Below, piece by piece: positions 4,480 through 32,144 of a DNA stretch of 35,073 nucleotides (positions within the stretch are counted from its first letter, which is position 1; each line of letters opens with the position of its first letter). The translations under genes were made by a program, and so were the position numbers. The notes under the pieces are model-generated. The model worked only from the letters and a program-made list of their open reading frames with translations, was not told where the DNA came from and searched no databases. This DNA is from a virus (lineage: Duplodnaviria; Caudoviricetes), in IMG/VR virus record IMGVR_UViG_3300042288_000046, positions 1-35,073 of that record. One strand, given 5' to 3'.

Positions 4480-4911
4480 ATGGCACTGCCAAAAAATCAG
4501 AACTTTGAGGTATCCGCAACAGGCGGAGCGGGAACTAATGGTCAACCAGCACGCTATGCAGCAGGCATAGACGGCGCACAGGACTTCTATGACCTACAGA
4601 CTGCAGCACAAATGAGTGGCTCAAACCCAGCGTTCTCTACAGTTCCTTCCCCATCAGGTCAACGCCCATTCCGAGGCGACAGCGCAGCAAAACTTGTACC
4701 ACTAGATGCACCTACTCAACGCCCTGAGGAAGATGTCCGCACTGGTGGAAGCATGGCTACAGACACAATGTATGCAACAGATTCAATGGCTAACTCAGAA
4801 GATGCAGACCGTATGCGTGCAGCACTTCCATACTTGTCAACACTTGCAGAGTTGCCACAGACATCAAATAATTTCCGCAACTATGTACGATACCTAAAGA
4901 GTGTACTTTGA
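4480..4911 (+). CDS. Hypothetical protein, probably virion-associated
   Basis: 143 aa, SD GAGGGA, stop overlaps the start of the next gene. Confidence 0.75.
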   Translation: MALPKNQNFEVSATGGAGTNGQPARYAAGIDGAQDFYDLQTAAQMSGSNPAFSTVPSPSGQRPFRGDSAAKLVPLDAPTQRPEEDVRTGGSMATDTMYATDSMANSEDADRMRAALPYLSTLAELPQTSNNFRNYVRYLKSVL

Positions 4912-7900
4912 GTTTTTCCGAGACACTTGGCGGTTTTGCCAAAAAACTTCAAGGTAACGGATTTGCCAACGACATAGGCTTACCGACTTTATTGTTTGAC
5001 CTTGCTTCTGTGTCATCTAATGACAAGAATTGGGTAGGCGATGCTTTTAACATTGCTGGCGATACTTTTCGTTCATCAGTGTTAGCAGCATCTTTCCCAA
5101 TTCGTAAAGCATCAGGTTTTGCAATCCAAAAGGCTTTGCTTCCAGCAGCACAGTTGTCATACGAAACTGGTGGTCGTTACCTTCGTGAGCCATTATCAGC
5201 AGCATTAACAACACTTGCAACTGGTGATGTAAAAAAGTCATGGGAAAACCGTGATGAGATTTCTCCAGGACAAGCACTTGCTTATTTGCAGTCACGCTTT
5301 CCTGTAACAGGTAATGCGGTAATGGGATTTGATGAAGGTTTTGACATCTTCAATCCTAATGACAGAAAAGACTTTGAAACAGACTGGAATCTTCGCACTA
5401 TCACTGGTGCTTACGACACATTCTTTACAACAGTAACTGACCCACTAGGCAAAATTGGCAAGGCTGCAGGTCTTGCTCGTAAGGCTTTGGTTACACGCCC
5501 AATGGGTGCTGTTGATGCTAACGCTTCAACTTTGGCTCGTGACTTCTTTATGCCAAAGAGTATCCGTAAGACAACTATTATTTCTCCTGAGACTCTTGCA
5601 AGAACAATTAACGAGGGTCGTGAAGAAGGCGGAGAACTTTACAATACGCTTTCATGGTTTGCTAAGAGTGACCAAGTTTCATCACGCAGCCATCCAACTG
5701 TTGAACTTTCTAATGATGCAGATACATTGTCATACCTTTTAGGTGAGGCAAAAACTGTAGATGATGTAGCAGATACATTTATGGCTACAGCGCTTAAGGA
5801 CAAAGAAGCAATGGCTCGTCTTGTCGCCAAGCGTAAAGACCTAGCCTTTGTTATGGATAAGATTAAAGATACATCTACAACAGAACTTAATATGTTGGAC
5901 AATATCCCAACTAACGGCATTGTAGATGACATCAACAAGTTAGATTCAGCAGATGCTCTTGTCAAGAATCTTGATGAAGATGTTTATTTCCGCTACTTAA
6001 CAACCCTTAATGACAAGGGTGCAGATTTAACTAAGCGTACTTTTGGTGCATCACCATTTGAAAAGATGGCTATTAACCGAGCAGAGCGGCGTGCAGCAGG
6101 CATCCGTGGCAAAGTTGATGATATTGATTCACCAACAAGTTTCCCTACAGTAGGTTACTTCCAACCTACAAAGTATCATCCGCTAGTTGCGGTTGTTAAC
6201 TTCGGCGTGAAAAAGGTAGGCGATGCTTTCCAGGAAAAGCCAGCAGGATATATTAACCTTAACGATTCTGATTCGTATAACGAAATTGCGGCATTTGGCA
6301 ATCTTCTTCGCCGTGTTGTTGGAGACGAAGCAAACCCGATTGTCCAAAGACATTTAAACGATTACATCCAGTCAGGTGGCACACCAGAACTTCGTGCTCG
6401 TGTAGTTGAGTCATTTGAAGATTTAGCGATTACATCTATTAACCGCAAACTCGGTATCTCCGATGAAGCAGGCGCACAAATCTGGGGAGCATACAAGTCT
6501 CGCCGTGAGACTGCACGCTCTATGATTAAGGACCGCAAGTTCTTAATGACTAATGATGATGTTATTCTTAAGATTCCTTACTTAGAACGCCAAGGCGCTA
6601 ACGCTTTACCAATGGTTGACTTGGAAAACTACGAGCGTGTTCTTATGAAGAACAAGGGACTTCTCAAGGCACTAGAAGGTGGCTTTGATGTTGTAGACCC
6701 AGACTCATGGCGCTATACCACTGGCATTATGAATGACATGTGGAAGGCATCAGTTCTTCTACGCCTTGGTTACACAGTAAGAAATGTGTCAGAAGGTGCG
6801 CTGTCTATCATGGCTAAGGGCTACGGCTTAATGGCTCTAGGTGACTTAAACCGCGAAGGCTTTGATGCATGGTACTCAAATCGTGTACGCGACATTGAGC
6901 GCATCACTGACCGCCGTTTAGTATCACAAGGCGCTCGTGAAGATTCTATTCAACTGCGCCGTTTATTTGCTGAGAAGCAATATGAGTTTGGTGCTGCTGA
7001 CCGCATGTACAACGAGTTGCTTGCATACTTGCCAGCAGCAGAGCGTGCGTTCCTTAATGGCAAGTTAGATGAAGCGCAGTTAAAAGAAATTATTGATGTT
7101 TTCCAGTATGCAACTGGTGAGTATCTATACCATGGAACACCTACTCCTATCAATGGTTTAGATAACACTCGTCCATTTGCGATGAGCCTGTCACAGGATA
7201 TTGCTAACCGCTATGCCGATGCTGCAATGCCAACTGTTTCTGCCGCTGATATTTACAAGCGCATGACTGGTCGTGCTGGTCGCTTGCCTAAGAACATTGA
7301 GCGTTCTGCTGCTGATGAAATTGGTTCAGAAGCAATTATTGACAGACTCAGTGAAGATGAATTTTTAGAACTTACAGAGTATGTAGCAGGAAACTTTCAA
7401 GATATTCAAGCAGGATTGCGTGATGCAAATTTTGCAATATCTCGTGGACGAAATATACCAGAACTTCCAAAAACATTACAGAGAACAATTCAGCGAAGCG
7501 TTCTTAAAGAACCACTAACTGTATATCGTGGAACTACTAACCCAAGAAATATTTTTGCTAACGCGCAAGTTGGCGATATTATCGAAGAACCTGCTTTTGT
7601 TTCAACAAGTTATAGCGATGATGTTGCAAGAAATTTTGCAACTCCAAATCCTTTAAATAAAATACCAACATTAAATACAAATCTTAAACCTGGCGAAGAT
7701 ATGTTTATACCAGGAGAAGAAACCATTTCTACGCAAATAAAAATGAAACTTCCTAAAGGTTTAAACGGTTTAGATGTTGGCGCAACTTATCAAGATTTTT
7801 CTAATAAAACAGGAACTCAAATTAGCCGTGAAACGCTAATGATGGTTAACAGAGAGTCGGAAGTTTTACTTCCTGCTGGAACAAAGTTTCGTGTTATTAG

Positions 7901-10900
7901 CCGTGGCGGAAATGTAGATTCTGGATTTGTAGTTACTGTTGAAGCAATCCTTCCAAAGGCTGCTCCTAAGCAGAAGCCATCACTTGCTATGGAAACTATC
8001 GGTGCAGACATGCGCGATGGCTTCATCAACACAGTAAACAATGGTAATCAAGTAGAACTACTGAACCCTCAAACAGGACAGTGGCGAACCATTGACCCAA
8101 ATACAGTTTCTCAGAAGATGCTTGTTCAAGGCACATTCCGTATTCGTAAACCTGGCAATCAAGGTGCAGTCCTTGGCAACAAGGTTTATGGAGAAAGCAT
8201 TGACCTTCGTTTATTCCAAGGTAACCGAGCCAAACTAGGTTTAAAAGACTACCCAGAATTGCAAAAGATTCTTGGTGTTGGAGAAACTGCTGGTTGGAAA
8301 ACTCGTGCAGCATGGGAAGGCAAAGAGGACCAACTCCTTGGCTGGATGCGTGCTAATGGCGTAGGAAAGTTAGTACTTCCTGATACTAAGGCTAATGGCA
8401 ACGCTACAGTTCTTGTAGACCCAGAGATGGTAGAAGCCTTTGGTGAACAGCCTGCTGTTCTGCTTGCTGAAAAGCGTTTAAACGCAATTAAAAACCAGCA
8501 GCAATTACTTTCTGATGAATCTCGTGTGGCTAAACTAATCGAGGACACCATCAAGAATGGTGGCGCAACAGTTTCATTTACTGGCGATGTTCCTACATCA
8601 GGATTCTCTGTTGCTATCCGTGGTGCTACACATACATTCTCCGTAGAAGATGCTCGCAATAATCCTCAAGCATGGATTGATTCTATGGCTGAGCACTTTG
8701 AGAAGAACCTTGAGAAGTTTGGCACAGCAGACCATTTTGGTACTTGGGTGCAAGACATTGATGGCGTGCCACATATCTGGGCTGACCCTACGAATGTTAT
8801 TGTAGATAAAGCAAAGGCTGCTAAACTAGGACTTGAAAGAAACCAAGTTGAAGTTGCTGACCTTGCCGCCATTCAAAAGGGCGACTGGGACAATGCAATG
8901 ATTAACACTAAGGGTACAGGAGATAAAAATGCCAGCGCAGAATTTGCATTGGGTCAAGGCACCAAAGCCAGTATCGGAAATGTCCCAGGAGGAACGCAGG
9001 GCGTTCGCCGAGTTATTGGCACGGAGGGCTTTGGAAAACGCATTGATGAACTCGAAGCCATCCTCAGCACAAGAAAGTATCCAACAGACGGGCTTGTAAG
9101 TCTTGTTCGTGAGTTTGCCGATGGGCAGGCTGCAGCAAAGCGTGACATGAATGGTCTACTAAGTAGACTTGATGCACGCCTTGTAGAAGAAGGTCGCATT
9201 GCTGCACCTCGCCAGATTCAAGGCACAGGTCGCCGTACAGAAAGACTTTACGATGGCAGCATGGTTGAGTTTGACGATTCATTTAGAGGTGAAGGTGGAG
9301 CAATCCTACTATCTCAAACTGATAACGCTCAAACCTACCGCAATTTTGTAGACCATCCATCACAGTTATTCGCAGCAGAACACTCAAACTTTACAGAGGC
9401 TCGCCTCACAGCCAAGATGCCTGAGTACTACACAGGTTATGCTAACCAACTGAACTCATTCTTCCGCTCACCTGATGGTCGTATTGACCCTATCGTTGAA
9501 ATGTTCCTTAATGGAATGAAGCCAGAGCAGGCTGTTGCATGGTTACGCAAGCCAGAGAATGTTGCTTACGCTCGTAAGTTTAACATTGATGTTCCTGGTA
9601 TCAAGGTAATGTCAGAGCGTTTAAATGTATCTATGGATGCAGAAGATTTTGTTGGTGACTTGTATAGCGCCTATCAGCGCTACCTTCCAGACAATGAAGT
9701 GCAAGAAGCCTTCCGTGCTGGTGATGCAACAGAGCAATGGTTGCGTACACACTTTACTGATAACCCAAATATGCCAGACATTATCGGTCGTATTGTGCCT
9801 ACAAGCCAAGAAGCCCGTACATGGCAAGAGGGTATGAGTAAGGTTGTAGAGCGTGCTTTCCACTTCTTAGGTTCATTACCCGAAACTACAGTGGCTCGTC
9901 ACCCACTAGCCCGTCAGATTTATCGTGCAGAGTACAAGAATCGTTTAGATATTGCTCTTGCCACAAAGCGTTTAAACGAAGGCGATGCTGCCGAACTTAC
10001 AGTAGATGACATTAACAACCTACGCGGACAGGTCATTGAGGCTACACGCAAGGAAGTTAACAGCACACTCTTTACTATTATTCGCAAATCATACGCAGGC
10101 GAAAAGATGCGTTTCATTATGCCGTTCTTTAACGCATGGGAAAACACTATTCGCCGTTGGTATGGACTTACTAAGGATAATCCAGCAGTTGTCGCCCGTG
10201 CAGGACAGGTTATTTCTTCTCTGCGTAACCAGCCAAATGTGGTTGACCAAGATGGTAACCAAACTACTGAGTTTAGTTATGACAACAAGATTGTCCTACC
10301 TATGCCAGAAGGTGCAATCAAAACAGTTAGCATGATTCCTGGCTGGGGTAAGGGAATGGCAGAGGCATTGCGTTCATCAGGAACTCAGATGTCTATTCCA
10401 ATCCGAAGCCTTGACATCCTGTTCCAGGGTGAAGCGATTGCAGGATTTGGTCCTATTGTAACTATGCCAGTCAATGAGATAGTTAAAATAAAGCCAGACC
10501 TTGAGGACTTGGTTACATCAACAGTGTTGCCAGTGCTTCCATTTGGTCCACAAGAAGGCTTTCTACGCCAGTTGTTCCCACCTGCAGCACAGAAACTTAT
10601 CTCATTACGAGGTCAGGATGAAGCGTGGAGCCGTACATTTAATACTGTTTACCGCTATGAATTGATTCGCTTTAACCTTGGCGAGCGCAATACATTGCCT
10701 GAACTTGGTGAGATTAAAACAATGGCAGATAACCTCTACAAGGTTAAGATGCTTTCTAACTTGGTAATGCCATTTGCTGCACAGTATGACTCAACATTAA
10801 GTTTCTACACACAGCAGTTCCGCCGTCTACAGCAGGTATACGGACAGGATGCAGAGGCTTTGTTCCTTGAGATGTACCCTGAAATGTCACCTGCTTTGAT

Positions 10901-11645
10901 TAGCGCTTCTTACAATCCAACGGGTGTTAACGCATCACAGGCTGCATTTAAGAATACTCAGAAGTACAGCGGTTTGATTAGCAAAATTGGTCAGACTACA
11001 CCTGAAATGATTGGCTTCTTGGTCAATGACCCTGATGGCAAGTATGATTTCTCAGAGGCTGTGTACGCATGGCAGTATGGCAATGCACCTGTTCCTGGTT
11101 CTACAGAGAACTACAGAGGTCGCCGCAACCCAGCAGACTTGAAGAAGGATGCTAATGTAAAGATGGGTTGGATTGAGTTCCGTAAGAATATGAACCTTTT
11201 GGACTCACAACTATTTGCACAGGGCTACACATCATTCAATGACAATGGTGCTGAGGAACTACAGACCCTTAAGCAGATGATGGTTGCTGACATGACTAAC
11301 CGCAATAAAGATTGGGCTGCTGACTACTACAGCGTAGATAGAGGCAAGTGGATTTATCGCATGCAGTCTATGACTACCATGCTTTCAGACCCAACATGGA
11401 TGAAGGAAAACGGTAACCGACCTGTTGTTCAATCTATCGCTGTATATCTAAATCTACGCAGCCAGATTGCCAGAGAGTTAGCAAGCCGTAAGGCATACGG
11501 AATGTCATCCACCCTAACAGCAAAAGATAACTCAGACCTTGATGGTTTGTGGAATCAGACTATCGCTCAACTTCTTCAAGGCTCTGGTGAGTTTGAAGAT
11601 TTCTATAACCGTTTCTTGCAAAATGACCCTGTGACATTGGGATAG
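4908..11645 (+). CDS. Giant internal virion/ejection (polyvalent) protein containing ADP-ribosyltransferase domain(s)
   Basis: 2245 aa in the structural operon; VIP2/Alt-like motifs YRG (7524), FVSTS (STS at 7602), ESEVLL (7854); YHGT motif at 7128; helical C-terminal part (FIMPFFNAWEN) reminiscent of podovirus internal proteins. Confidence 0.8.
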   Translation: MSFSETLGGFAKKLQGNGFANDIGLPTLLFDLASVSSNDKNWVGDAFNIAGDTFRSSVLAASFPIRKASGFAIQKALLPAAQLSYETGGRYLREPLSAALTTLATGDVKKSWENRDEISPGQALAYLQSRFPVTGNAVMGFDEGFDIFNPNDRKDFETDWNLRTITGAYDTFFTTVTDPLGKIGKAAGLARKALVTRPMGAVDANASTLARDFFMPKSIRKTTIISPETLARTINEGREEGGELYNTLSWFAKSDQVSSRSHPTVELSNDADTLSYLLGEAKTVDDVADTFMATALKDKEAMARLVAKRKDLAFVMDKIKDTSTTELNMLDNIPTNGIVDDINKLDSADALVKNLDEDVYFRYLTTLNDKGADLTKRTFGASPFEKMAINRAERRAAGIRGKVDDIDSPTSFPTVGYFQPTKYHPLVAVVNFGVKKVGDAFQEKPAGYINLNDSDSYNEIAAFGNLLRRVVGDEANPIVQRHLNDYIQSGGTPELRARVVESFEDLAITSINRKLGISDEAGAQIWGAYKSRRETARSMIKDRKFLMTNDDVILKIPYLERQGANALPMVDLENYERVLMKNKGLLKALEGGFDVVDPDSWRYTTGIMNDMWKASVLLRLGYTVRNVSEGALSIMAKGYGLMALGDLNREGFDAWYSNRVRDIERITDRRLVSQGAREDSIQLRRLFAEKQYEFGAADRMYNELLAYLPAAERAFLNGKLDEAQLKEIIDVFQYATGEYLYHGTPTPINGLDNTRPFAMSLSQDIANRYADAAMPTVSAADIYKRMTGRAGRLPKNIERSAADEIGSEAIIDRLSEDEFLELTEYVAGNFQDIQAGLRDANFAISRGRNIPELPKTLQRTIQRSVLKEPLTVYRGTTNPRNIFANAQVGDIIEEPAFVSTSYSDDVARNFATPNPLNKIPTLNTNLKPGEDMFIPGEETISTQIKMKLPKGLNGLDVGATYQDFSNKTGTQISRETLMMVNRESEVLLPAGTKFRVISRGGNVDSGFVVTVEAILPKAAPKQKPSLAMETIGADMRDGFINTVNNGNQVELLNPQTGQWRTIDPNTVSQKMLVQGTFRIRKPGNQGAVLGNKVYGESIDLRLFQGNRAKLGLKDYPELQKILGVGETAGWKTRAAWEGKEDQLLGWMRANGVGKLVLPDTKANGNATVLVDPEMVEAFGEQPAVLLAEKRLNAIKNQQQLLSDESRVAKLIEDTIKNGGATVSFTGDVPTSGFSVAIRGATHTFSVEDARNNPQAWIDSMAEHFEKNLEKFGTADHFGTWVQDIDGVPHIWADPTNVIVDKAKAAKLGLERNQVEVADLAAIQKGDWDNAMINTKGTGDKNASAEFALGQGTKASIGNVPGGTQGVRRVIGTEGFGKRIDELEAILSTRKYPTDGLVSLVREFADGQAAAKRDMNGLLSRLDARLVEEGRIAAPRQIQGTGRRTERLYDGSMVEFDDSFRGEGGAILLSQTDNAQTYRNFVDHPSQLFAAEHSNFTEARLTAKMPEYYTGYANQLNSFFRSPDGRIDPIVEMFLNGMKPEQAVAWLRKPENVAYARKFNIDVPGIKVMSERLNVSMDAEDFVGDLYSAYQRYLPDNEVQEAFRAGDATEQWLRTHFTDNPNMPDIIGRIVPTSQEARTWQEGMSKVVERAFHFLGSLPETTVARHPLARQIYRAEYKNRLDIALATKRLNEGDAAELTVDDINNLRGQVIEATRKEVNSTLFTIIRKSYAGEKMRFIMPFFNAWENTIRRWYGLTKDNPAVVARAGQVISSLRNQPNVVDQDGNQTTEFSYDNKIVLPMPEGAIKTVSMIPGWGKGMAEALRSSGTQMSIPIRSLDILFQGEAIAGFGPIVTMPVNEIVKIKPDLEDLVTSTVLPVLPFGPQEGFLRQLFPPAAQKLISLRGQDEAWSRTFNTVYRYELIRFNLGERNTLPELGEIKTMADNLYKVKMLSNLVMPFAAQYDSTLSFYTQQFRRLQQVYGQDAEALFLEMYPEMSPALISASYNPTGVNASQAAFKNTQKYSGLISKIGQTTPEMIGFLVNDPDGKYDFSEAVYAWQYGNAPVPGSTENYRGRRNPADLKKDANVKMGWIEFRKNMNLLDSQLFAQGYTSFNDNGAEELQTLKQMMVADMTNRNKDWAADYYSVDRGKWIYRMQSMTTMLSDPTWMKENGNRPVVQSIAVYLNLRSQIARELASRKAYGMSSTLTAKDNSDLDGLWNQTIAQLLQGSGEFEDFYNRFLQNDPVTLG

Positions 11646-19683: not shown

Positions 19684-21510
19684 ATGGCAGCAGGCGACCC
19701 AGGCTCCCCAGCGCGGTACTACTCCTCGATTGCAGTAGAAACAGCGCTCTCAGGTTCCATTCCAGCACAGGCACAAGGCGCGGCAAACACCGCGTTCATT
19801 GTCGCATCTGTCTCTGGCTTTCCTTCATCATACCCATACACACTTATTGTTGACCCTGATACTTCTAAAGAAGAAGTAGTCACAGTAACTGCTGGTTCAG
19901 GTACAACACTTTCAGTAACCCGTGGTTCTGATAATACCCAAGGCGTAGCACACTCCGCAGGAGCAGTTGTCCGCCACGGTGTATCAGGTCGTGAGTTCCG
20001 TGAAGAACAAACTCACATTGCTGCCCGTGGTTTTGATATTGACCAAACAATCCTCGACCTTGCCAACCAGACACATGTGCATGGTATTGTCACAGGCGAA
20101 GGTGTCGTTGTTGGAACTCTCAAGGCACAGACACTTACACAAAAGACTCTTACTACACCTATTATTAACGGCGCTACAATTACAGGTACAGTCACTGCAA
20201 CAAGTGCAACCTTTACTAGCCCAACTATCTCAGGTTCACCAGTTATTACTGGTCTATCTAGCGCTGGCATGGTGGCATCATCTGCTACACCTAAGGATTA
20301 TGTAGACAGTATCCTTGGCTCAGCAACCTCTGCTGCAATTAGCGCAGCATCTGCTGCAGTCAGCGCAACCTCTGCTGCTACTAGCGCTACATCGTCAGCA
20401 AATAGCGCAACAGCATCTGCTTCATCTGCAAGCGCATCTGCAACTAGTGCATCTGCTGCTGCTACTTCTGCTACTTCGGCTGCAGCCTCTGCTACCGCAG
20501 CAGCCACAAGTGCTACTAGTGCTGCTGCCTCTGCTACTGCTGCTGCAACTAGCGCAACAAGTGCTGCTGCTTCTGCTACAACTGCTGCTGCTTCTGTAGC
20601 AACTATCGCAGGCTATGCAACATCTGCTGCTAACAGCGCAAGCGCTGCAGCAACCTCAGCAACTTCTGCTGCTGCATCAGCCACGGCTGCTGCCACATCA
20701 GCAACAAGTGCTGCAGCAAGTGCAACGGCTGCTGCAACAAGTGCAACAAGTGCAGACAGCGCAGCATCTATTGCTATTGCTCAAGCATCTAATGCGTCAG
20801 CATCAGCAACTGCAGCAGCAACATCTGCTACAAGTGCAGCCAACTCTGCTACAGCAGCAGCAACTTCTGCAACATCAGCAACAGCCAGCGCTACTGCTGC
20901 TGCTACAAGTGCTGCATCTGCATCTACCAGTGCAAGTTCTGCATTGACATCGGCTAATAGTGCTGCAACATCATACGATGAGTTTGATGACCGCTACCTA
21001 GGCTCTAAGACATCTGACCCTACAGTAGACAATGACGGTGGCGCTCTTATTACTGGAGCGCTTTACTTTAACTCAGTCATTAGTGCGATGAAGGTTTACG
21101 ATGGTGCAGCCTGGGACCTTGTAGCACCTGACACATCTAACTTTATTGATAAAACAATCCTTACCGCTAAAGGTTCTTTAATCTCTGCAAGTTCAGCATC
21201 AACACCTTCCGTACTAACCGCTGCTTCAACTAACGGATACATCCTTAGTGTTAACAGTGCAACAACTACAGGACTTGAATGGGTTGCTGCTAATCCTGGA
21301 GATATAACTGGAGTTACAGCAGGTACGGGATTATCTGGTGGAGGAACTTCTGGTGCAGTAACAGTAAGTCTTGACACATCAAGTGTTTATGTAGTGCCTG
21401 CACAAGCAGGGCAAGCAGGAAAATATTTAACAACAGATGGTTCAACTGCAAGTTGGGCTGTAGTAGATACAACATCAATAGAAATAAACTCCATAATGGG
21501 CGTTTACTAA
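19684..21510 (+). CDS. Tail fibre protein with Ala/Ser/Thr coiled-coil repeat
   Basis: SATSAAASATAAAT repeats; FDDRYLG...GALYFN...MKVYDG and GDITGVTAGTGLSGGGTSG fibre motifs. Confidence 0.8.
   Translation: MAAGDPGSPARYYSSIAVETALSGSIPAQAQGAANTAFIVASVSGFPSSYPYTLIVDPDTSKEEVVTVTAGSGTTLSVTRGSDNTQGVAHSAGAVVRHGVSGREFREEQTHIAARGFDIDQTILDLANQTHVHGIVTGEGVVVGTLKAQTLTQKTLTTPIINGATITGTVTATSATFTSPTISGSPVITGLSSAGMVASSATPKDYVDSILGSATSAAISAASAAVSATSAATSATSSANSATASASSASASATSASAAATSATSAAASATAAATSATSAAASATAAATSATSAAASATTAAASVATIAGYATSAANSASAAATSATSAAASATAAATSATSAAASATAAATSATSADSAASIAIAQASNASASATAAATSATSAANSATAAATSATSATASATAAATSAASASTSASSALTSANSAATSYDEFDDRYLGSKTSDPTVDNDGGALITGALYFNSVISAMKVYDGAAWDLVAPDTSNFIDKTILTAKGSLISASSASTPSVLTAASTNGYILSVNSATTTGLEWVAANPGDITGVTAGTGLSGGGTSGAVTVSLDTSSVYVVPAQAGQAGKYLTTDGSTASWAVVDTTSIEINSIMGVY
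20319..20970 (+). repeat. Degenerate 7/14-aa protein repeat within the tail fibre
   Basis: Repeating SATSAAA/SATAAAT units with diversified codons. Confidence 0.85.
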
Positions 21511-21529
21511 GCGAAAGGTACAGTAACTA

Positions 21530-21844
21530 ATGGCTGTAACATCCAAAACGCTGGCTAGAACATCAGCAGCGACAACAAGCACAACCCTATATACACAACC
21601 TAATACTTCAACGACTACGGTAGTTACTAATATTTTGGTGACTAATACTACTGCAAGCACTGCTAACTTTACATTAGATTTTGCTACTGTAACAGCGGCT
21701 ACTTCAGTATCTGTCGGTGCTTTTGACACTACGGTTATAGATTTAAAACAGGTAATCCCAGCAACTAACCCTGCTGCTACTATTACTGGCAGTGCTTCTA
21801 CCACTGGTATTAGATTTCACATTTCAGGAGTGGAGATTTCCTAA
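21530..21844 (+). CDS. Small beta-rich tail-fibre-associated protein
   Basis: 104 aa, Thr-rich, C-terminal FHISGVEI. Confidence 0.65.
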   Translation: MAVTSKTLARTSAATTSTTLYTQPNTSTTTVVTNILVTNTTASTANFTLDFATVTAATSVSVGAFDTTVIDLKQVIPATNPAATITGSASTTGIRFHISGVEIS

Positions 21845-22740
21845 TGACTCCAGTATTTAGTATGAAAAATGGAACCATCTCTGGTTCTTTTCTTAATGGC
21901 AATACTCGTTATGAGCCAAATCCTTTTGCAACTTCTAGCGGTGGTACGGATATAAGCACATCTACTGATTGGATTATGCAATTTAATTCAAGTGGTACCC
22001 TTCGTACTACTGGTACAAACAACATTACTTACCTAGTTGTAGGTGGTGGAGGTGCTGGTGGATGGTCAGGCATTTCTGGCGGTGGTGGTAGTGGAGAACT
22101 TAAAACTGGTACAGTCAATAGCGTTGCTGCTGGAAATTACACAGTTACTATTGGTAATGGTGGTGCTAACGCTACTGGCTCTTATGCTACTGGTACTACT
22201 GGTGGTGTTGGAGGTACAACAACTCTTGCCTTTACATCTTCAATCTCATCAGTAGGTGGTGGCGGTGGAGGCTCATACAATGTAAACATCAATGGTTCAA
22301 ATGGCGCTAGTGGTGGCGGTGGAGCAGGTGGTTATGGTTCTGGTGTAGGTACTGGAGGAACTGGTCAAGTTCACTATAACGGCGGTTCGGGTAGTTACTA
22401 CGCTAGTGGTGGTCAACAAGGTCAAGGCGGCGGCGGCGGCGGTGGTGGCGGTGCAGGTGGTGCAGGTGCTAATGTTGTTAAACAAAATTTAAACGCCCAA
22501 GGACTAGCAGGTGCTGGTGGTATCGGAGTTCAAAACGCTATTACTGGTACTCAAGTTTATTACGCAGGTGGCGGTGGTGGCTCTAGCGATAATGACGGAG
22601 CAGGCGGTCAAGGCGGTGGTGGAGCAGGTAGTGGCGCTCCACAAGCAAATAAAGGTGGCGGTGGCGGTGGAGAATACCGCAATACTCAAACAGGATATGG
22701 CGGTGGCTCTGGTGTTGTCATTGTTAAGACTCCGAAATAA
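21844..22740 (+). CDS. Glycine-rich tail fibre tip / receptor-binding protein
   Basis: YLVVGGGGAGG...GGGGSG...YYAGGGGG...GGSGVVIV polyglycine domain. Confidence 0.75.
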   Translation: MTPVFSMKNGTISGSFLNGNTRYEPNPFATSSGGTDISTSTDWIMQFNSSGTLRTTGTNNITYLVVGGGGAGGWSGISGGGGSGELKTGTVNSVAAGNYTVTIGNGGANATGSYATGTTGGVGGTTTLAFTSSISSVGGGGGGSYNVNINGSNGASGGGGAGGYGSGVGTGGTGQVHYNGGSGSYYASGGQQGQGGGGGGGGGAGGAGANVVKQNLNAQGLAGAGGIGVQNAITGTQVYYAGGGGGSSDNDGAGGQGGGGAGSGAPQANKGGGGGGEYRNTQTGYGGGSGVVIVKTPK

Positions 22741-22760
22741 GACCCTGAAAGGTTAATTAA

Positions 22761-23603
22761 ATGGCTACTTTTGTAAAAATAGACGACACTAATACTGTAA
22801 CAGATTGTATACTTATTGATGATTCTAACTGTTCTATTGATGGAGCAGTTAGTGAATCCGTTGGTAAAGAATTTATTGCTAGTCTTAATTTAGATGGCAA
22901 ATGGATATTATCTGCACCTGGTGTAAGAAACAAAACAGCATCTCCAGGAGATAAATATAATCCAGATAAAGATATATTTGTTATAGATGAATCTATATTT
23001 AATACAAATTTTATCACCCCTTGGCAAACAATACTTCAACCAACCAGTCCATCTATTATGATAGATGCACCAGTACGCTCTGCAAATCAGTTTACTGCAC
23101 ACGCTGTACATCATTTATTTCCAGAGGCTTTTCAAAGATGGGGATATTTGTACCAACACAACCCTAATACTTTTAAAGAAACAGTTGGATTATTTGATGT
23201 AGTTATGACTGTAGTTCGTAATCCATTAGATAGTGTTGCTTCACATATTTATGCTGGAAAGTATGAAACTGGTGCTGAAATTGACAAAGCATTTAATGAG
23301 AATAAAAAGTTTCTTGATGCTATACTTGAAGCAAAAAACAACATAGAAATATTTACTTTTGAGGAAGTAACTCAGACTCCTGAAATCTTAGGTACTAGAC
23401 TATCTCAGTTACTTGGGGTTGAAGCAGTGCCTTATGACCATGAAGCAGTCTTGGCTGAAATATCTAAGTTACCAAAAATAGATTATTATGCTATGCCAGT
23501 TAACAACTCAGCAGAACTAGAACAAATTAAATCTGATTTAAATGCAAGGTATGCAGAGAAAATCAATGAGTCCATGGTAACATATAACGCTATATTAGCC
23601 TGA
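22761..23603 (+). CDS. Tail-fibre-associated N-terminal domain fused to a sulfotransferase-like domain
   Basis: DAPVRSANQF resembles the 5'-PSB loop (PRSGxxF); VVRNPLDSVAS matches the 3'-PB motif RNPxD...S. Confidence 0.6.
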   Translation: MATFVKIDDTNTVTDCILIDDSNCSIDGAVSESVGKEFIASLNLDGKWILSAPGVRNKTASPGDKYNPDKDIFVIDESIFNTNFITPWQTILQPTSPSIMIDAPVRSANQFTAHAVHHLFPEAFQRWGYLYQHNPNTFKETVGLFDVVMTVVRNPLDSVASHIYAGKYETGAEIDKAFNENKKFLDAILEAKNNIEIFTFEEVTQTPEILGTRLSQLLGVEAVPYDHEAVLAEISKLPKIDYYAMPVNNSAELEQIKSDLNARYAEKINESMVTYNAILA

Positions 23604-23620
23604 TATGTTAAGGGGACAAG

Positions 23621-24328
23621 ATGAAAGAAATAAAGTTCTTTCCAGTAAAAAAGGAAGTTGAACTTGGGGGCAGCGCTCCAAAGCCTGCCCTTAAGTTCAT
23701 ACCTGAGTGGTATAAAAATATACCTATATATACTGATAACGAAAAAAAATTAAGTATGAAAGAAGATGCTCAAATGCATAATCATACTTTAAAAAAATGT
23801 GTTCCCTTTTTAGATGCAATGACTTCTGGATATGTATTCACACTTGATGATGATATATATGTTGAGCAAGTTAATAACGAACCATACATCAGATGGAAGT
23901 CTGAGGTAGAAATTATTACTTGGCACTCCCTCAATCAATTTCCAGGATTTTCTATACCCGATGATTATCATTATATGGTTGCTAAGTTTCACAACGATTG
24001 GAAAATAACAACACCAAAAGGTTACAGCCTTTTTTGCACACACCCGTCCAATAGATTTGATTTACCATTTAGAACTATTAGCGGTTTTGTGGATACTGAT
24101 ACTTACAGTCAGCCAATACAATTTCCTTTTATTCTTAAAAAAGGTTTTGAAGGAATAATAGAAGCAGGCACTCCAGTTGCTCAACTAATTCCAATTAAAA
24201 GAGATGACTGGAAATCAATTCAAGAACCATATAATGCAGATGTTGCTTACAAAAACTTTAGAGCGTTTAGAAGAACTTTTGCAAATTCATATCGCAAAAA
24301 CTTTTGGCAGAAAAAGAAGTATCAATAA
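23621..24328 (+). CDS. Conserved phage hypothetical protein (DUF6065/dUTPase-fold-like)
   Basis: CVPFLDAMTSGY, TPKGYS...HPSNRFDLPF...GFVDTD, IEAGTPVAQLIPIKR. Confidence 0.6.
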   Translation: MKEIKFFPVKKEVELGGSAPKPALKFIPEWYKNIPIYTDNEKKLSMKEDAQMHNHTLKKCVPFLDAMTSGYVFTLDDDIYVEQVNNEPYIRWKSEVEIITWHSLNQFPGFSIPDDYHYMVAKFHNDWKITTPKGYSLFCTHPSNRFDLPFRTISGFVDTDTYSQPIQFPFILKKGFEGIIEAGTPVAQLIPIKRDDWKSIQEPYNADVAYKNFRAFRRTFANSYRKNFWQKKKYQ

Positions 24329-24329
24329 A

Positions 24330-25076
24330 ATGATTATTCAAATTATCGGTTTACCTGGCAGTGGTAAGACAACACTTGCCACTGCTCTGGCTGACCGCAT
24401 CAATGCTGTACATTTAAACGCTGATTATGTACGGGCAACCATTAACTCTGACTTAGGCTTTGCGCCAGAGGATAGAGTTGAACACGCCCGCCGTCTTGGT
24501 GAGATGGCTAAGATGCTATCTAGCCAAGGCTTAGATGTTGTTGTTGACTTCATCTGCCCTACCGCTGCTACTCGTGCAGCCTTCGGTAAGCCTGACATCT
24601 GTATCTGGATGGACACTCTTGCCGAGGGTCGCTTTGAAGATACAAACAAACTGTGGGAAAAGCCTACTGAGTTTGACTATCATTTTGTGTCTTACGACAG
24701 TAAAGGTCAAACAGATTTAATCATTGCTCAGTCTGGTCTGCATGACTGGAAGGCACCTACAACCCTATTGCTTGGTCGGTATCAACCATGGCATGAGGGA
24801 CACCACGCACTATTGGAGAAAGCACATGAGCGTACAGCACAGGTTGTTATTGGCGTTAGGGATACTCACGGCACTAGCGAGAAAGACCCTCTCCCTTATC
24901 AAGAAGTTGCCAATCGGATACGAGCCGAAGAACGGTCATCTTTCGTTGTAAAGTTTCCTAACATTACGAACATAGTTTATGGGCGTGATGTTGGCTACAA
25001 GATTGAGCAAGTTGATTTAGGTGCAGACATACATGCAATCTCAGCAACACAGAAAAGAAAAGAACTTGGCTTGTGA
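24330..25076 (+). CDS. cysC: Adenylyl-sulfate kinase-like domain fused to an HxGH nucleotidyltransferase
   Basis: P-loop GLPGSGKTT; LNADYVRATINSDLGFAPEDRVEHARR and DFICP resemble CysC; C-terminal GRYQPWHEGH...ISATQKR; ATG 24330. Confidence 0.75.
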   Translation: MIIQIIGLPGSGKTTLATALADRINAVHLNADYVRATINSDLGFAPEDRVEHARRLGEMAKMLSSQGLDVVVDFICPTAATRAAFGKPDICIWMDTLAEGRFEDTNKLWEKPTEFDYHFVSYDSKGQTDLIIAQSGLHDWKAPTTLLLGRYQPWHEGHHALLEKAHERTAQVVIGVRDTHGTSEKDPLPYQEVANRIRAEERSSFVVKFPNITNIVYGRDVGYKIEQVDLGADIHAISATQKRKELGL

Positions 25077-25282
25077 AAGTAAGCAAGTCCCGTTCATTTA
25101 CTAAATCACTCAGTTATAGAATCTTTGGAACACTTAGTTCTTTTGCTGTTGTATTTGTTATTACTGGCGAAGGAACTCTTTCTGCGCTGATTGCGCTTTG
25201 GGAAACAGTAGTCAAGATTGGTATCTATTACTGGCATGAAAGAATCTGGGACAAAATATCCTGGGGTAGAAAATCTAATTAA
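25073..25282 (+). CDS. DUF2061-like small membrane protein
   Basis: RSFTKSLSYRIFGT...KIGIYYWHERIWDKISWG. Confidence 0.8.
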   Translation: MKVSKSRSFTKSLSYRIFGTLSSFAVVFVITGEGTLSALIALWETVVKIGIYYWHERIWDKISWGRKSN

Positions 25283-25291
25283 GGAGACATA

Positions 25292-27256
25292 GTGGCAAGT
25301 CGCCCACCTGATATATCCGAGCGCGTGATAATTGACCTGTCTGGTCGAACATCCGCCTACTATGACCCAACCACATACAAGTTTGATGTTGCTATCGGTG
25401 GCATGCCGTTTATCTATGGCATCACAGATGCAACACCATACCGCCGTCAGACTGCAGAGTTTAGAACTCAGCGCTTTGACAATGCCCGTGACCCAGGTGA
25501 GCAATCACTGTCAGGCTCAGGCTATTGGATTCGTTCACAGTCATCCTTCCACTTAGGTGGAGGCATCACATACCAAGAGCCTATCGTTGGCACGCCTGAT
25601 GAGGTTAAGTTTCAGTTCTCTGACTCAGTAGGCGTAGACCCATGGACTCCAGGACAGTTGAGCCTGCTCCACTCTACAAGCCTTACACAGGCTTCTACTG
25701 CCCGCTCTGGTGTTTTCTCTACCATTATCAGTGGCGTTGAGTACCTAGTTAAAGTCACTGGTTCAGCAGCCGTTACAGCCCGTGTAACAACCACTACTAC
25801 TGCTGGTACAACAGCAACAATTATTAACAACACAGCCATTAATGAAGAAATTCTTTATGCTGCAATGGGTGGTAATGACTTAATGATGGTCACACCTACT
25901 AAGGTATGGCGTTACTCATTCGATGCCGTTAGCCCTGCCTTACATCAGGACTACGCGATTAACACAGCCAATGCTACCTCTGCTTTTATCTCTTATGTCA
26001 AGCAACGCTTTATGTTGGGCTTTACTGATACAGCAAAGAATACATTTGTCTATGAGTTGGTACGCAACACAGGTTCAAGTATCAATATCAGTACACTTAC
26101 CGCTGTTAATGGTAGCGCTACCTTACCTATTGGATTTAGATTCATGGGTATTACAGAGTCAAGTGCTGCTATCTATGTCGGTGGATTCTCAGGTGATGAA
26201 GGTGTCGCCCTTAAGATTTCAGTAGATAACACTGGTGCACTAAGCACTATGACTACAGTACTTGTGCTACCACGAGGCGAACGCCTTACTGCTTTGTATG
26301 GATACCTTGGTACCTTTGTAGCCATTGGTACTAGCCAAGGCGTGCGGATTGCAATCTCAGATGCTACTGGCAACCTATCTTATGGTCCGCTTGTGTACGA
26401 ATCAGCCTACGATGTCTATGCATTTACAGCCAGAAACGAATACATCTGGGCTGGTGTAAAAAGTGAAGTAGATAGTTACTCAGGACTTATCCGTATTAAC
26501 CTTGGCTCACCATTAGGTAGCGGCAAGTATGCGTACGCTAAAGATATTTATGCATCAGGTACTACTGGCTACATCTGGTCTATTGCTACATTTGCCAACG
26601 GACACAAAGCATTTACAGTTGAGGACTCTGGATTATGGCGTGAGTCGCAGACAGATTATGTTGAGTCAGGTGAGATAACTACTGGCGTTATTCGCTTTGA
26701 TACTTTCGAGAACAAGGCATGGAAGCGTATTAAATTGCGCCTTGAAGGAACACTACAAGGTGACATAGATATGTTTCGTGTTATTGATGGTACAGACATA
26801 GCATTTCAGACAGTGCCAGAAGGTACTACCGCTATCTATGACTATGACTTAGCACCTGTCTTTAATGATGTTACAGCCGAAGCACAGTTCAAGTTCCGTT
26901 TAAACAGAAACAATACAGACCCAACTAAGGGTGCTGTTATCTATGGATACTCAGTCAAGGCTTTGCCTACACCTACTCGTGCTCGAGTACTACAGATTCC
27001 ATTGTTCTGCTTTGACCAAGAGACTGACCGCAATAAACAAATCATTGGTTATCAAGGCTATGCACTTGCTCGCTTGCAAGCGCTAGAACAAATGGAAGCA
27101 TTGGGCGAAACGCTCATCATCCAAGACTTTACTGCTGGTGGAGAACCTATCGAAGCAGTGGTTGAGCAGGTTACATTTACCCGCACAACACCACCTAACG
27201 GAAACTTCTCTGGTTATGGTGGAGTAATTCAAGTAGTTGCTCGTACTGTCGTCTAA
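25292..27256 (+). CDS. Putative tail nozzle / tail tubular protein B-like structural protein
   Basis: 654 aa, beta-rich (propeller-like); SD AAGGAG; last structural gene before lysis. Confidence 0.55.
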   Translation: MASRPPDISERVIIDLSGRTSAYYDPTTYKFDVAIGGMPFIYGITDATPYRRQTAEFRTQRFDNARDPGEQSLSGSGYWIRSQSSFHLGGGITYQEPIVGTPDEVKFQFSDSVGVDPWTPGQLSLLHSTSLTQASTARSGVFSTIISGVEYLVKVTGSAAVTARVTTTTTAGTTATIINNTAINEEILYAAMGGNDLMMVTPTKVWRYSFDAVSPALHQDYAINTANATSAFISYVKQRFMLGFTDTAKNTFVYELVRNTGSSINISTLTAVNGSATLPIGFRFMGITESSAAIYVGGFSGDEGVALKISVDNTGALSTMTTVLVLPRGERLTALYGYLGTFVAIGTSQGVRIAISDATGNLSYGPLVYESAYDVYAFTARNEYIWAGVKSEVDSYSGLIRINLGSPLGSGKYAYAKDIYASGTTGYIWSIATFANGHKAFTVEDSGLWRESQTDYVESGEITTGVIRFDTFENKAWKRIKLRLEGTLQGDIDMFRVIDGTDIAFQTVPEGTTAIYDYDLAPVFNDVTAEAQFKFRLNRNNTDPTKGAVIYGYSVKALPTPTRARVLQIPLFCFDQETDRNKQIIGYQGYALARLQALEQMEALGETLIIQDFTAGGEPIEAVVEQVTFTRTTPPNGNFSGYGGVIQVVARTVV

Positions 27257-31167: not shown

Positions 31168-31426
31168 TGGACTACCAGAGTTTATTGAACGCATTGATGA
31201 GGCTACACAAAAAATCTACGACCCATCACAAGTCTGGTTTGAATCTTTACAGTTCGCTGATTATGTTGGGCAGTTGGCTGAACATCTTACTGAGGACCAC
31301 GGACCAGAGTGCAGAGAAGAAATCGCAACCCAACTCCGACTCATGAGTGAGTCATGGAAAGACCTAGCAGAGAACGCAATGGAAGTACTCGACAAGTCAG
31401 AGGAAGTGTTTAAACATGGCGCATAG
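31007..31426 (+). CDS. Hypothetical helical protein (start uncertain)
   Basis: 139-aa ORF, GGAG upstream, fills 31167-31416. Confidence 0.6.
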   Translation: MFGRKKKAEDSKTSQMRNSKDSLMKALSVTPEMMEQAVMSAKQIPAEMKQAILDGLPEFIERIDEATQKIYDPSQVWFESLQFADYVGQLAEHLTEDHGPECREEIATQLRLMSESWKDLAENAMEVLDKSEEVFKHGA

Positions 31427-32144
31427 TAGTAAAGAAACATTATCAGTTATTTGGTGTGACAACGGGAACACTGACGGCAAGTTCACAGAGGGCTTGGTAT
31501 ACAGCATCATCACTGGTGAGGTGCCATTCCATAACGCTATCCGTGTACAGGGTAATCAGATTGCACGCCAACGACAGGCTGCCTTCGAGATGTGGAACAA
31601 GGTCGGTACTGATTGGGCGTTGTGGGTTGACTCTGACATTGTACTTACCAAAGAAGTAGTCAAGACTCTATGGGATACCGCTGACAAGATTGCTCGTCCA
31701 GTTGTAAGTGGTGTTTACTTTATCTCTAAGCAGATGGAGAACTCATTGATGATGCCTATGCCTGCCATCTTTGATGAGGGTGGGAATGAGTACGAGATTA
31801 AACATCATCATCCACTGCCACGCAATCAAGTCATCAAGGTTGATAGCGCTGGCTTAGGTCTGGTCTTAATGCATAAGTCTATTATCAAAGCATTGCATGA
31901 GAAGTTTGGTGAGTCTGACTTTGTGTTTGCTGAGAACAACGCAAGCGGTGAACAGTTTATTGGTGAGGACATCGCCTTCTTCCGCAAGGTTAAGGCTGCT
32001 GGTGTACCAGTTGTGGCTAACACTGGTGCATTGGTCAAGCACATGAAGCGCTTTGCCTTCGATGATAATTACTATAACCTCTACTGGGCAGCCATTGAAA
32101 GCGCAGAAAGGAATCAGCAAAATGCCAACACAGCAAGCGAGTAA
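31416..32144 (+). CDS. Glycosyltransferase-like protein (GT-A / GT2)
   Basis: IARQRQ, WALWVDSD (DxD), SAGLGLVLM, GEDIAFF...VKH. Confidence 0.75.
   Translation: MAHSSKETLSVIWCDNGNTDGKFTEGLVYSIITGEVPFHNAIRVQGNQIARQRQAAFEMWNKVGTDWALWVDSDIVLTKEVVKTLWDTADKIARPVVSGVYFISKQMENSLMMPMPAIFDEGGNEYEIKHHHPLPRNQVIKVDSAGLGLVLMHKSIIKALHEKFGESDFVFAENNASGEQFIGEDIAFFRKVKAAGVPVVANTGALVKHMKRFAFDDNYYNLYWAAIESAERNQQNANTASE

Follow-up and report, generated by a model that had tools for sequence, protein, structure and literature searches.

The window analysed here is the whole 35,073-nucleotide linear virus record IMGVR_UViG_3300042288_000046 (Duplodnaviria; Caudoviricetes; CheckV completeness 87%), whose genes, judged by Pfam and PHROG profiles, include a terminase, a portal, a major head protein, an SU10-type adaptor, a fibre and a replication module. 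We infer a freshwater actinobacterial host because one window gene matches the mycobacteriophage family PF25690. Our subject is a tail-fibre cassette in which four tightly packed plus-strand open reading frames (ORFs), all in the same orientation, lie between a Gly-rich gene (21844-22740) and a gene for a protein of 654 amino acids (aa; 25292-27256), a layout that the initial annotation had described and that the ORFs confirm. One of them encodes a 248-aa fusion of a kinase-type and a miniature nucleotidyltransferase domain. We propose, at roughly even odds (about 0.5), that the fusion, a sulfotransferase and a DUF2061 protein make up a three-gene sulfation module acting on the phage's own fibre or adhesin. 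The cassette reads as follows (PAPS, 3'-phosphoadenosine 5'-phosphosulfate; APS, adenosine 5'-phosphosulfate).

19684..21510, + strand: tail fibre, 608 aa, Ser/Thr/Ala-rich (S 17%, T 15%, A 25%); phrog_38058 tail fibre, E 2e-202
21530..21844, + strand: conserved fibre-cassette protein of 104 aa, 27% Thr; cluster c2, with 41 members in 64 loci anchored on the 654-aa gene
21844..22740, + strand: Gly-rich adhesin-like protein, 298 aa; PF21722 Gly_rich_2, E 8e-11
22761..23603, + strand: 280-aa protein with an adhesin-associated N-domain (residues 1-~80) and a predicted PAPS-dependent sulfotransferase domain (residues ~95-280)
23621..24328, + strand: DUF6065-like protein, 235 aa; optional passenger of the tail slot
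24330..24740, + strand: short-lid APS-kinase-type domain, residues 1-137 of the 248-aa fusion
24741..25076, + strand: miniature HxGH nucleotidyltransferase domain, residues 138-248 of the fusion (GRxQPxHxGH, GRxVGY, ISATxxR); candidate ATP sulfurylase of a new family
25073..25282, + strand: small DUF2061 protein, 69 aa; PF09834, E 3.5e-16, 59.8 bits against a cut-off of 23.1
25292..27256, + strand: conserved 654-aa gene at the end of the variable tail slot, used here as a neutral anchor; phrog_11667, a family annotated as of unknown function; putatively nozzle-like in the initial annotation

The program-made ORF list gives the fusion gene (24330-25076) an earlier start, at 24204. We place it at 24330 because full-length homologues measure 248-250 aa and because the DNA homology with the related locus L086 resumes at 24329 (91% identity). 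The layout is no assembly artefact, since it recurs in contigs L001/L082, L002/L081 and L083. GC content is 33-35% in the sulfotransferase and DUF6065-like genes as against 44-47% in the fusion, and this low-GC block (22700-24200) is consistent with a recent exchange. A promoter and terminator scan of 21400-25500 gave no excess over shuffled sequence (8 against 11.1 and 4 against 2.4).

The module is best followed through its distribution among relatives. We collected 132 viral loci anchored on the fusion, which were not dereplicated and two of which are of the window's own sequence type. A sulfotransferase gene was present in 48 of them, as counted with profiles that were seeded from such loci and whose seeds had weak-to-good Pfam support. 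In 16 of the 17 loci that also carried a Gly-rich gene or its partner gene, i.e. in tail context, fusion and sulfotransferase were at most 1.2 kb apart; in a second set, of 80 metagenome loci, a sulfotransferase was present in 6 of 7 such cases. The downstream 654-aa gene offered an anchor neutral to the fusion: it fetched 71 loci, 64 of which had upstream DNA that could be analysed, and the 42 that reached the adaptor gene were kept as complete slots. Fusion, DUF2061 gene and sulfotransferase occurred together in five of these slots, the sulfotransferase by itself in one, the fusion by itself in none, and neither in 36. The co-occurrence in relatives that the initial annotation had put forward as a check is therefore found in tail cassettes. 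The modular swapping is, like the gene layout and its conservation, observed directly. When 23 tail-context fusions are placed on a tree, the four types of sulfotransferase that accompany them appear intermixed, and in locus L003 the fusion is 99% identical, the sulfotransferase 38% identical and the adhesin another one. It follows that sulfotransferase and adhesin travel as a pair and that the PAPS supply remains with the backbone. This joint exchange is our main argument for an acceptor specific to the cassette. Two further loci (L287, 6002-7811; L258, 4110-4763) have glycosyltransferase-like genes in the same tail slot instead of a sulfotransferase, which suggests that the slot generally holds fibre-tailoring enzymes.

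The 280-aa protein contains both motifs, PVRSANQF and RNPLDSVAS, on which the initial annotation had based a sulfotransferase-like domain, and searches with predicted structures back the fold. Its AlphaFold model, computed from an alignment of the 18 homologues found among 571 candidates, has a mean predicted local distance difference test score (pLDDT) of 87.8. All Foldseek matches listed from the PDB are PAPS-dependent sulfotransferases (best E 2.7e-5), and in a structure search independent of Foldseek the top 16 matches, over residues ~76-280, belong to the sulfotransferase superfamily (Z 11.8 to 9.6; the best with a root-mean-square deviation, rmsd, of 3.5 over 171 aligned residues). R106, S107, H133, R153 and S161 are invariant in all 18 family members. 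The stretch R106-S107-x-N109 after strand 1, also invariant in 18/18 and reading PRSG in the relatives P0138, L013 and L018, is the putative counterpart of the canonical 5'-phosphosulfate-binding loop of sulfotransferases. R153 and S161 are spaced by eight, as are Arg130 and Ser138 of the 3'-phosphate motif in the PAPS-binding layout given in the accessible part of PMC4199319. H133, 20 residues ahead of R153, is on sequence grounds a candidate active-site His. The 280-aa protein itself has no match to PF00685, PF13469 or PF03567; searching the PDB with the family sequences found nothing meaningful, and a profile comparison of the family with gp33 of phage Sano was not significant. Five of the 18 members give weak Pfam sulfotransferase matches (best E 0.0064), and it is on these together with the structure prediction that we predict a PAPS-dependent sulfotransferase fold.

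The N-terminal part links this enzyme to the fibre. Residues 1-77 match phrog_7759, and residues 1-80 belong to the same family as separate proteins of ~100-125 aa. Of 35 distinct sequences of this family, 32 are encoded immediately downstream of a Gly-rich gene; of the other three, one comes after a sulfotransferase and two have no gene before them in the DNA that was fetched. The gene order suggests that the sulfotransferase is tethered to the tail fibres. A complex prediction for the Gly-rich protein with the N-domain scored 0.42, one control reaching 0.55, and is used neither for nor against.

The fusion family comprises 5,855 of 6,850 candidates (5,855 clusters at 90% identity). The full-length 248-aa protein matches phrog_10255 'kinase' (E 1.5e-61), its homologues are named 'adenylylsulfate kinase' by JGI, and its structure is predicted with a pLDDT of 95.2. 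The CysC-like APS kinase domain recognised initially is well founded: residues 2-84 match the Pfam APS_kinase family (E 8e-17; PF01583, 62.1 bits against a cut-off of 21.1), and the best structural matches of this half are APS kinases (Z 17.8, rmsd 1.8, 126 aligned; Foldseek E 1.5e-8). In CysC of Mycobacterium tuberculosis, the accessible part of PMC4373884 names Asp480, Arg483, Phe492 and Arg497 as APS contacts and Arg559 and Lys562 as lid residues. When these contacts are mapped by motif position, their equivalents are kept in most of 58 diverse sequences (D32 in 54/58, R35 in 57/58, F44 in 56/58, R49 in 56/58), as is the P-loop (G7/G12/K13, 57/58), and a family-specific segment, D104-T105...P112, is conserved. 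By all available signs the kinase half is likely to work like an APS kinase; against it count a shortened lid, LNAD in place of LDGD (the first Asp being Asn in 33/58) and a TIGR00455 score of 64.1 bits against a cut-off of 138.7.

The C-terminal half gives a CTP_transf_like match (residues 147-198, E 1.6e-5), and 20 phage and bacterial members share invariant GRxQPxHxGH, a Pro after strand 2, GRxVGY and ISxTxxR. With the ATP sulfurylase Sat this domain has in common the HXXH motif (H155-x-G-H158) and SxTxxR (S238-A-T-x-x-R243). A GRx loop (G218-G222), by its sequence a candidate for the GRD loop of Sat, reads G-R-D-V-G in the window; its G, R, V and G and the following Y are invariant, and the D is replaced in 9/20. 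The Sat motifs in the accessible part of PMC3779200 include the sulfate-binding motif QXRN, which the domain lacks, having GRxQP at that place. Its profile matches NadM nicotinamide mononucleotide adenylyltransferases (NMNATs; E 1.1e-13), there is no Sat among 59 PDB matches, and the nearest solved structures are again NMNATs (Z 9.9, rmsd 2.7, 102 aligned). PF01747 is touched by 6/20 members (best E 2.9e-4) and has no match in the window's own 110-aa domain. Membership of Sat was ruled out on the missing QXRN, the size of 110 aa against a three-domain Sat, the lack of a PF01747 match and the NadM NMNATs as nearest solved proteins. In a wide structure search with the whole fusion the kinase domain took up the matches, so that the missing separate Sat match tests little there. 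Membership of NadM was rejected as well, despite the shared GRxQPxHxGH and NP motifs: the NMNAT family cut-off is missed widely (28 against 127 bits), and the middle NMNAT segment (residues ~76-109 of 1f9a), which we take to be NMN-binding, is unmatched, with a counterpart of ~10 residues. The initial annotation had argued from the HxGH superfamily, to which Sat-type ATP sulfurylases belong, that the fusion could be a PAPS synthase. Since the domain is not Sat-type, that argument cannot alone carry the sulfurylase claim; the idea of a sulfurylase survives on gene context.

It is this context, and not sequence, that makes the mini domain a likely ATP sulfurylase. We searched 25 module-bearing genomes for Sat, CysD and aprA, and found Sat in none, CysD in two and aprA above cut-off in 16. 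Across an even sample of 121 Pelagibacteraceae genomes, which are incomplete, the mini domain was present in 53, aprA in 47 and Sat in 5; 41 genomes had both mini domain and aprA, 12 the mini domain only, 6 aprA only and 62 neither (Fisher p 5e-15, uncorrected for kinship). The mini domain was found in 38 of the 44 aprA-positive genomes with no Sat match and, by hand count, lay at most 4 kb from aprA in 19 of the 41 genomes carrying both; at the six best aprA loci there was none within 1.5 kb. Locus L232 has a stand-alone mini domain (2206-2583) directly upstream of aprM-aprB-aprA, and no APS kinase was found in that incomplete genome. A TenA/PqqC-like iron-redox gene stands between or beside mini domain and aprMBA in 4/4 Pelagibacteraceae loci (L232-L235). 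According to the accessible part of PMC5069961, SAR11 possesses AprBA but neither sat nor cysDN. The mini domain is no clean replacement for Sat, because 4 of the 5 Sat-bearing Pelagibacteraceae genomes have both. Elsewhere APS kinases scoring above the TIGR00455 cut-off have it fused behind them (L373) or in front of them (L118), and in L386 and L390 runs of cysG-cysI-cysH-DUF2061-kinase, with which the fetched DNA starts, end in a mini domain, the short-lid kinase being the sole kinase seen upstream of it. Genes for nadD and coaD were separately present in 5/5 mini-domain carriers checked. Among Peribacteria (L151, 6288-7901; L142, 6992-7884) the mini domain lies directly 5' of an APS-kinase-like gene amid glycosyltransferases, with a Sulfotransfer_2-like gene ahead of it in L151. 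At a contig end in L236 (2261-3655, minus strand) it is in frame with an aminotransferase-like region (465 aa), either a fusion or an assembly error.

The two remaining genes of the four behave differently from each other. The 235-aa protein falls just under the DUF6065 cut-off (PF19541, E 1.1e-5, 25.5 bits against 26.6), and its Atlas model matches a DUF6065 cluster (TM 0.75). Of the initial label, DUF6065/dUTPase-fold-like, the former half has this borderline match behind it and the latter was not confirmed, neither the single sequence nor a 13-sequence profile giving a PDB match. A DUF6065-like gene occurs anywhere in the flanks of 24 of the 132 fusion loci; in the 42 complete slots it accompanies the fusion three times, stands without it five times and is missing from 2 of the 5 fusion slots. 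It is an independent passenger of the tail slot. A sulfation system of four genes, as first proposed, was rejected since this gene does not track the fusion, and only the other three go together. The 69-aa product, correctly called DUF2061-like at the outset as it passes the PF09834 cut-off, is encoded within 300 bp of the fusion in 117 of 132 viral loci. It is a constant companion, and presumably an accessory, of the fusion in phages and of the bacterial operons that combine cysH, kinase and mini domain.

Fusions outside tail cassettes have neighbours of other kinds, namely oxygenases and glycosyl-, carbamoyl- and methyltransferases. Among cultured siphoviruses, Sano (L089, 5957-7726) and L093 have the complete fusion next to genes for NADAR and MazG; two genes upstream of the fusion Sano encodes gp33, which has a Sulfotransfer_4 match (E 4e-4). 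The Stenotrophomonas phages Bhz60, Suzuki and DLP6 carry the fusion as well. Ralstonia phage RSL1 and RsoM2USA have the kinase without the mini domain. In RSL1 (L091, 6989-14348) the short-lid kinase is the first gene of a cluster in which the annotation names a sulfotransferase, three glycosyltransferases and a member of the thymidylate synthase family; its product could be modified DNA that bears a sulfated glycan. When five genomes of cultured phages were searched with two Pfam models for sulfotransferases, there was one weak match.

For the window we infer both the reactions and the targeting. The 110-aa HxGH domain rather likely joins ATP and sulfate into APS, which would make it an ATP sulfurylase with its origin in the NadM/NMNAT branch, not in Sat or CysD. 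With slightly more assurance we expect the short-lid kinase to phosphorylate APS to PAPS, a reaction that pulls the unfavourable sulfurylase step. The 280-aa protein, by its predicted fold, very probably moves sulfate from PAPS to a hydroxyl group. On balance we lean towards its N-domain, normally a small protein with a gene of its own and a partner of the Gly-rich adhesin, bringing the sulfotransferase to the fibre tip late in assembly. With such targeting the acceptor would be the adhesin, the fibre with its many Ser and Thr residues, or a glycan attached to either. The 608-aa fibre, the C-terminal half of which is swapped between relatives (homology with L086 stops near 21038), is one candidate, and the Gly-rich protein is another, either as acceptor or as partner of the sulfotransferase.

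The acceptor is the weakest link in this account, and several observations weigh against it. In most phages, cultured ones included, the same fusion serves other contexts: 115 of the 132 fusion loci lie outside tail cassettes, and in Sano-like phages the fusion is far from the tail genes and on the opposite strand. Within the fetched flanks of those 115 loci a sulfotransferase was found in 32, and in the second set in 15 of the 73 loci elsewhere. The five positives obtained with the neutral anchor represent only two independent alleles, and the seeding of the sulfotransferase profiles has to be counted here too. In phage DLP6 neither of the two Pfam models detected a sulfotransferase genome-wide, a blank of little weight given that gp33 of Sano and the sulfotransferase gene annotated in RSL1 also escaped these models. 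PAPS might accordingly be made for an acceptor off the virion, which could be modified DNA, a small molecule, or a glycan or receptor on the host surface, the last with superinfection exclusion as the effect. The tailoring enzymes around the non-tail fusions, the NADAR, MazG and gp33 genes of Sano-like phages, the RSL1 cluster and the prediction by Pfam that the 69-aa companion is a membrane protein would all suit such an acceptor. In tail cassettes, however, the sulfotransferase lies inside a structural operon, fused to or directly after the adhesin-partner gene, is exchanged en bloc with the adhesin, and is of four unrelated types in that one position, so that we regard an acceptor off the virion as unlikely here, if the most serious competitor of sulfated fibre parts.

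Doubts about the enzymes themselves seem smaller. The closeness to NMNATs in sequence and structure, the absence of QXRN, the two CysD-bearing genomes, the Sat-bearing carriers, the incompleteness of the sampled genomes and their kinship all count against a sulfurylase, and the C-terminal domain might act on NMN or an unknown phosphate ester, leaving the phage with the kinase step and host APS. Phage fusions of a HIGH nucleotidyltransferase with a P-loop kinase for NAD salvage are described in the accessible part of PMC7824862, and the RSL1 and RsoM2USA kinases do without the domain. Against this stand the missed NMNAT cut-off, the reduced middle segment, the nadD and coaD genes that carriers already own, and informative neighbours all of which handle APS (aprBA, cysC, cysH, sulfotransferases), and we consider it improbable. 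More improbable still is a sulfurylase joined to a kinase that is weak or only binds APS or PAPS, with a host kinase finishing the job. That idea draws on a lid ~20 residues shorter than in CysC and with no Lys at the Lys562 position (the alignment there is ambiguous), lid closure being essential in the M. tuberculosis enzyme according to the accessible part of PMC4373884; it is met by the conserved P-loop, D32, R35, R49 and D104-T105...P112 and by the L386/L390 operons with their single kinase. Least probable is an assimilatory auxiliary metabolic gene (AMG), a 'cysC' boosting sulfate assimilation in the host and only incidentally placed among tail genes. Viral cysC is read in that way in bioRxiv 2021.01.05.425418 and bioRxiv 655167, as far as their accessible parts go, and the same small module does occur in bacterial cysH operons. 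No reductase gene was found among the window proteins scanned, though, the fusion stood without a sulfotransferase in 0/42 slots, and the acI-B1 lineage, a likely host type, is reported to lack a complete assimilatory pathway (bioRxiv 655167, accessible part). The first two of these results support the initial annotation in seeing a PAPS supply for sulfation and no assimilatory AMG; and if its host lacks sulfate activation, for which the third gives a precedent, the phage would need a PAPS supply of its own. It is likely, then, that the phage uses the module to sulfate parts of its own fibre and not to provide the host with sulfur.

Two genes of the window outside the cassette may be mentioned. 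A 2245-aa protein encoded between portal and head genes (4908-11645, plus strand) has an ADP-ribosyltransferase domain (PF03496, residues 812-998, E 6e-9; phrog_832) and is likely an ejected multi-domain protein for host takeover. In the replication module, 31416-32144 (plus strand) matches phrog_34859 'glycosyltransferase' (E 7e-119) with no Pfam match.

Loci that pair a dedicated PAPS supply with a sulfotransferase are known from rhizobia (nodPQ with nodH) and Xanthomonas (raxPQ with raxST), and the window locus is probably one more of that kind, with a new sulfurylase family inside. Like them it sets private sulfate activation beside a sulfotransferase that tailors an outward-facing molecule; unlike nodPQ and raxPQ, which encode CysD and CysN-CysC, it is viral and relies on one 248-aa protein with a NadM-like domain. 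PAPS synthases such as human PAPSS1 (1x6v, 630 aa) and the Aquifex Sat-CysC (2gks, 546 aa) likewise combine an APS kinase with an HxGH-superfamily domain, in PAPSS1 also with the kinase first (1x6v aligns over residues 1-247 of the fusion model, Z 16.5, rmsd 15.8), but the fusion is less than half their size, lacks QXRN, has a 110-aa domain in place of Sat and a shortened kinase lid. With the NadM NMNATs 1f9a and 2qjt it shares the GRxQPxHxGH start, the NP motif after strand 2 and the terminal SxTxxR, whereas the largely missing central segment, the invariant GRxVGY loop, the APS-kinase-type partner and the sulfur-gene neighbours separate it from NadM and from NadR-type fusions of nucleotidyltransferase and kinase. 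Freeman et al. 2023 reportedly described mycobacteriophage-encoded virion glycosylation, in which tailoring enzymes within the structural operon also decorate the particle; there the group is a sugar and the reaction was shown experimentally, whereas here sulfate transfer would be the reaction. Viral 'cysC' AMGs resemble the fusion by gene name and annotation, with an assimilatory reading in place of sulfation, and the accessible part of bioRxiv 2021.01.05.425418, which treats them so, makes no mention of a sulfotransferase. In a literature search that left supplements and most subscription papers outside, we found no description of the fusion, of a minimal ATP sulfurylase or of virion sulfation.

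More tentatively, the mini domain may represent a third class of ATP sulfurylase, working as the partner of AprBA in SAR11 (APS to sulfate plus ATP) and, in phages, as part of a 248-aa PAPS synthase that feeds swappable fibre-tip sulfotransferases. It offers a small candidate for the ATP sulfurylase seemingly missing beside AprBA in SAR11. If the proposed role is true, a synthase of this size would be handy for PAPS regeneration, the very common viral 'cysC' represented by the fusion family would be reassigned from host assimilation to sulfation, and sulfation would join the means by which phages decorate their receptor-binding parts.

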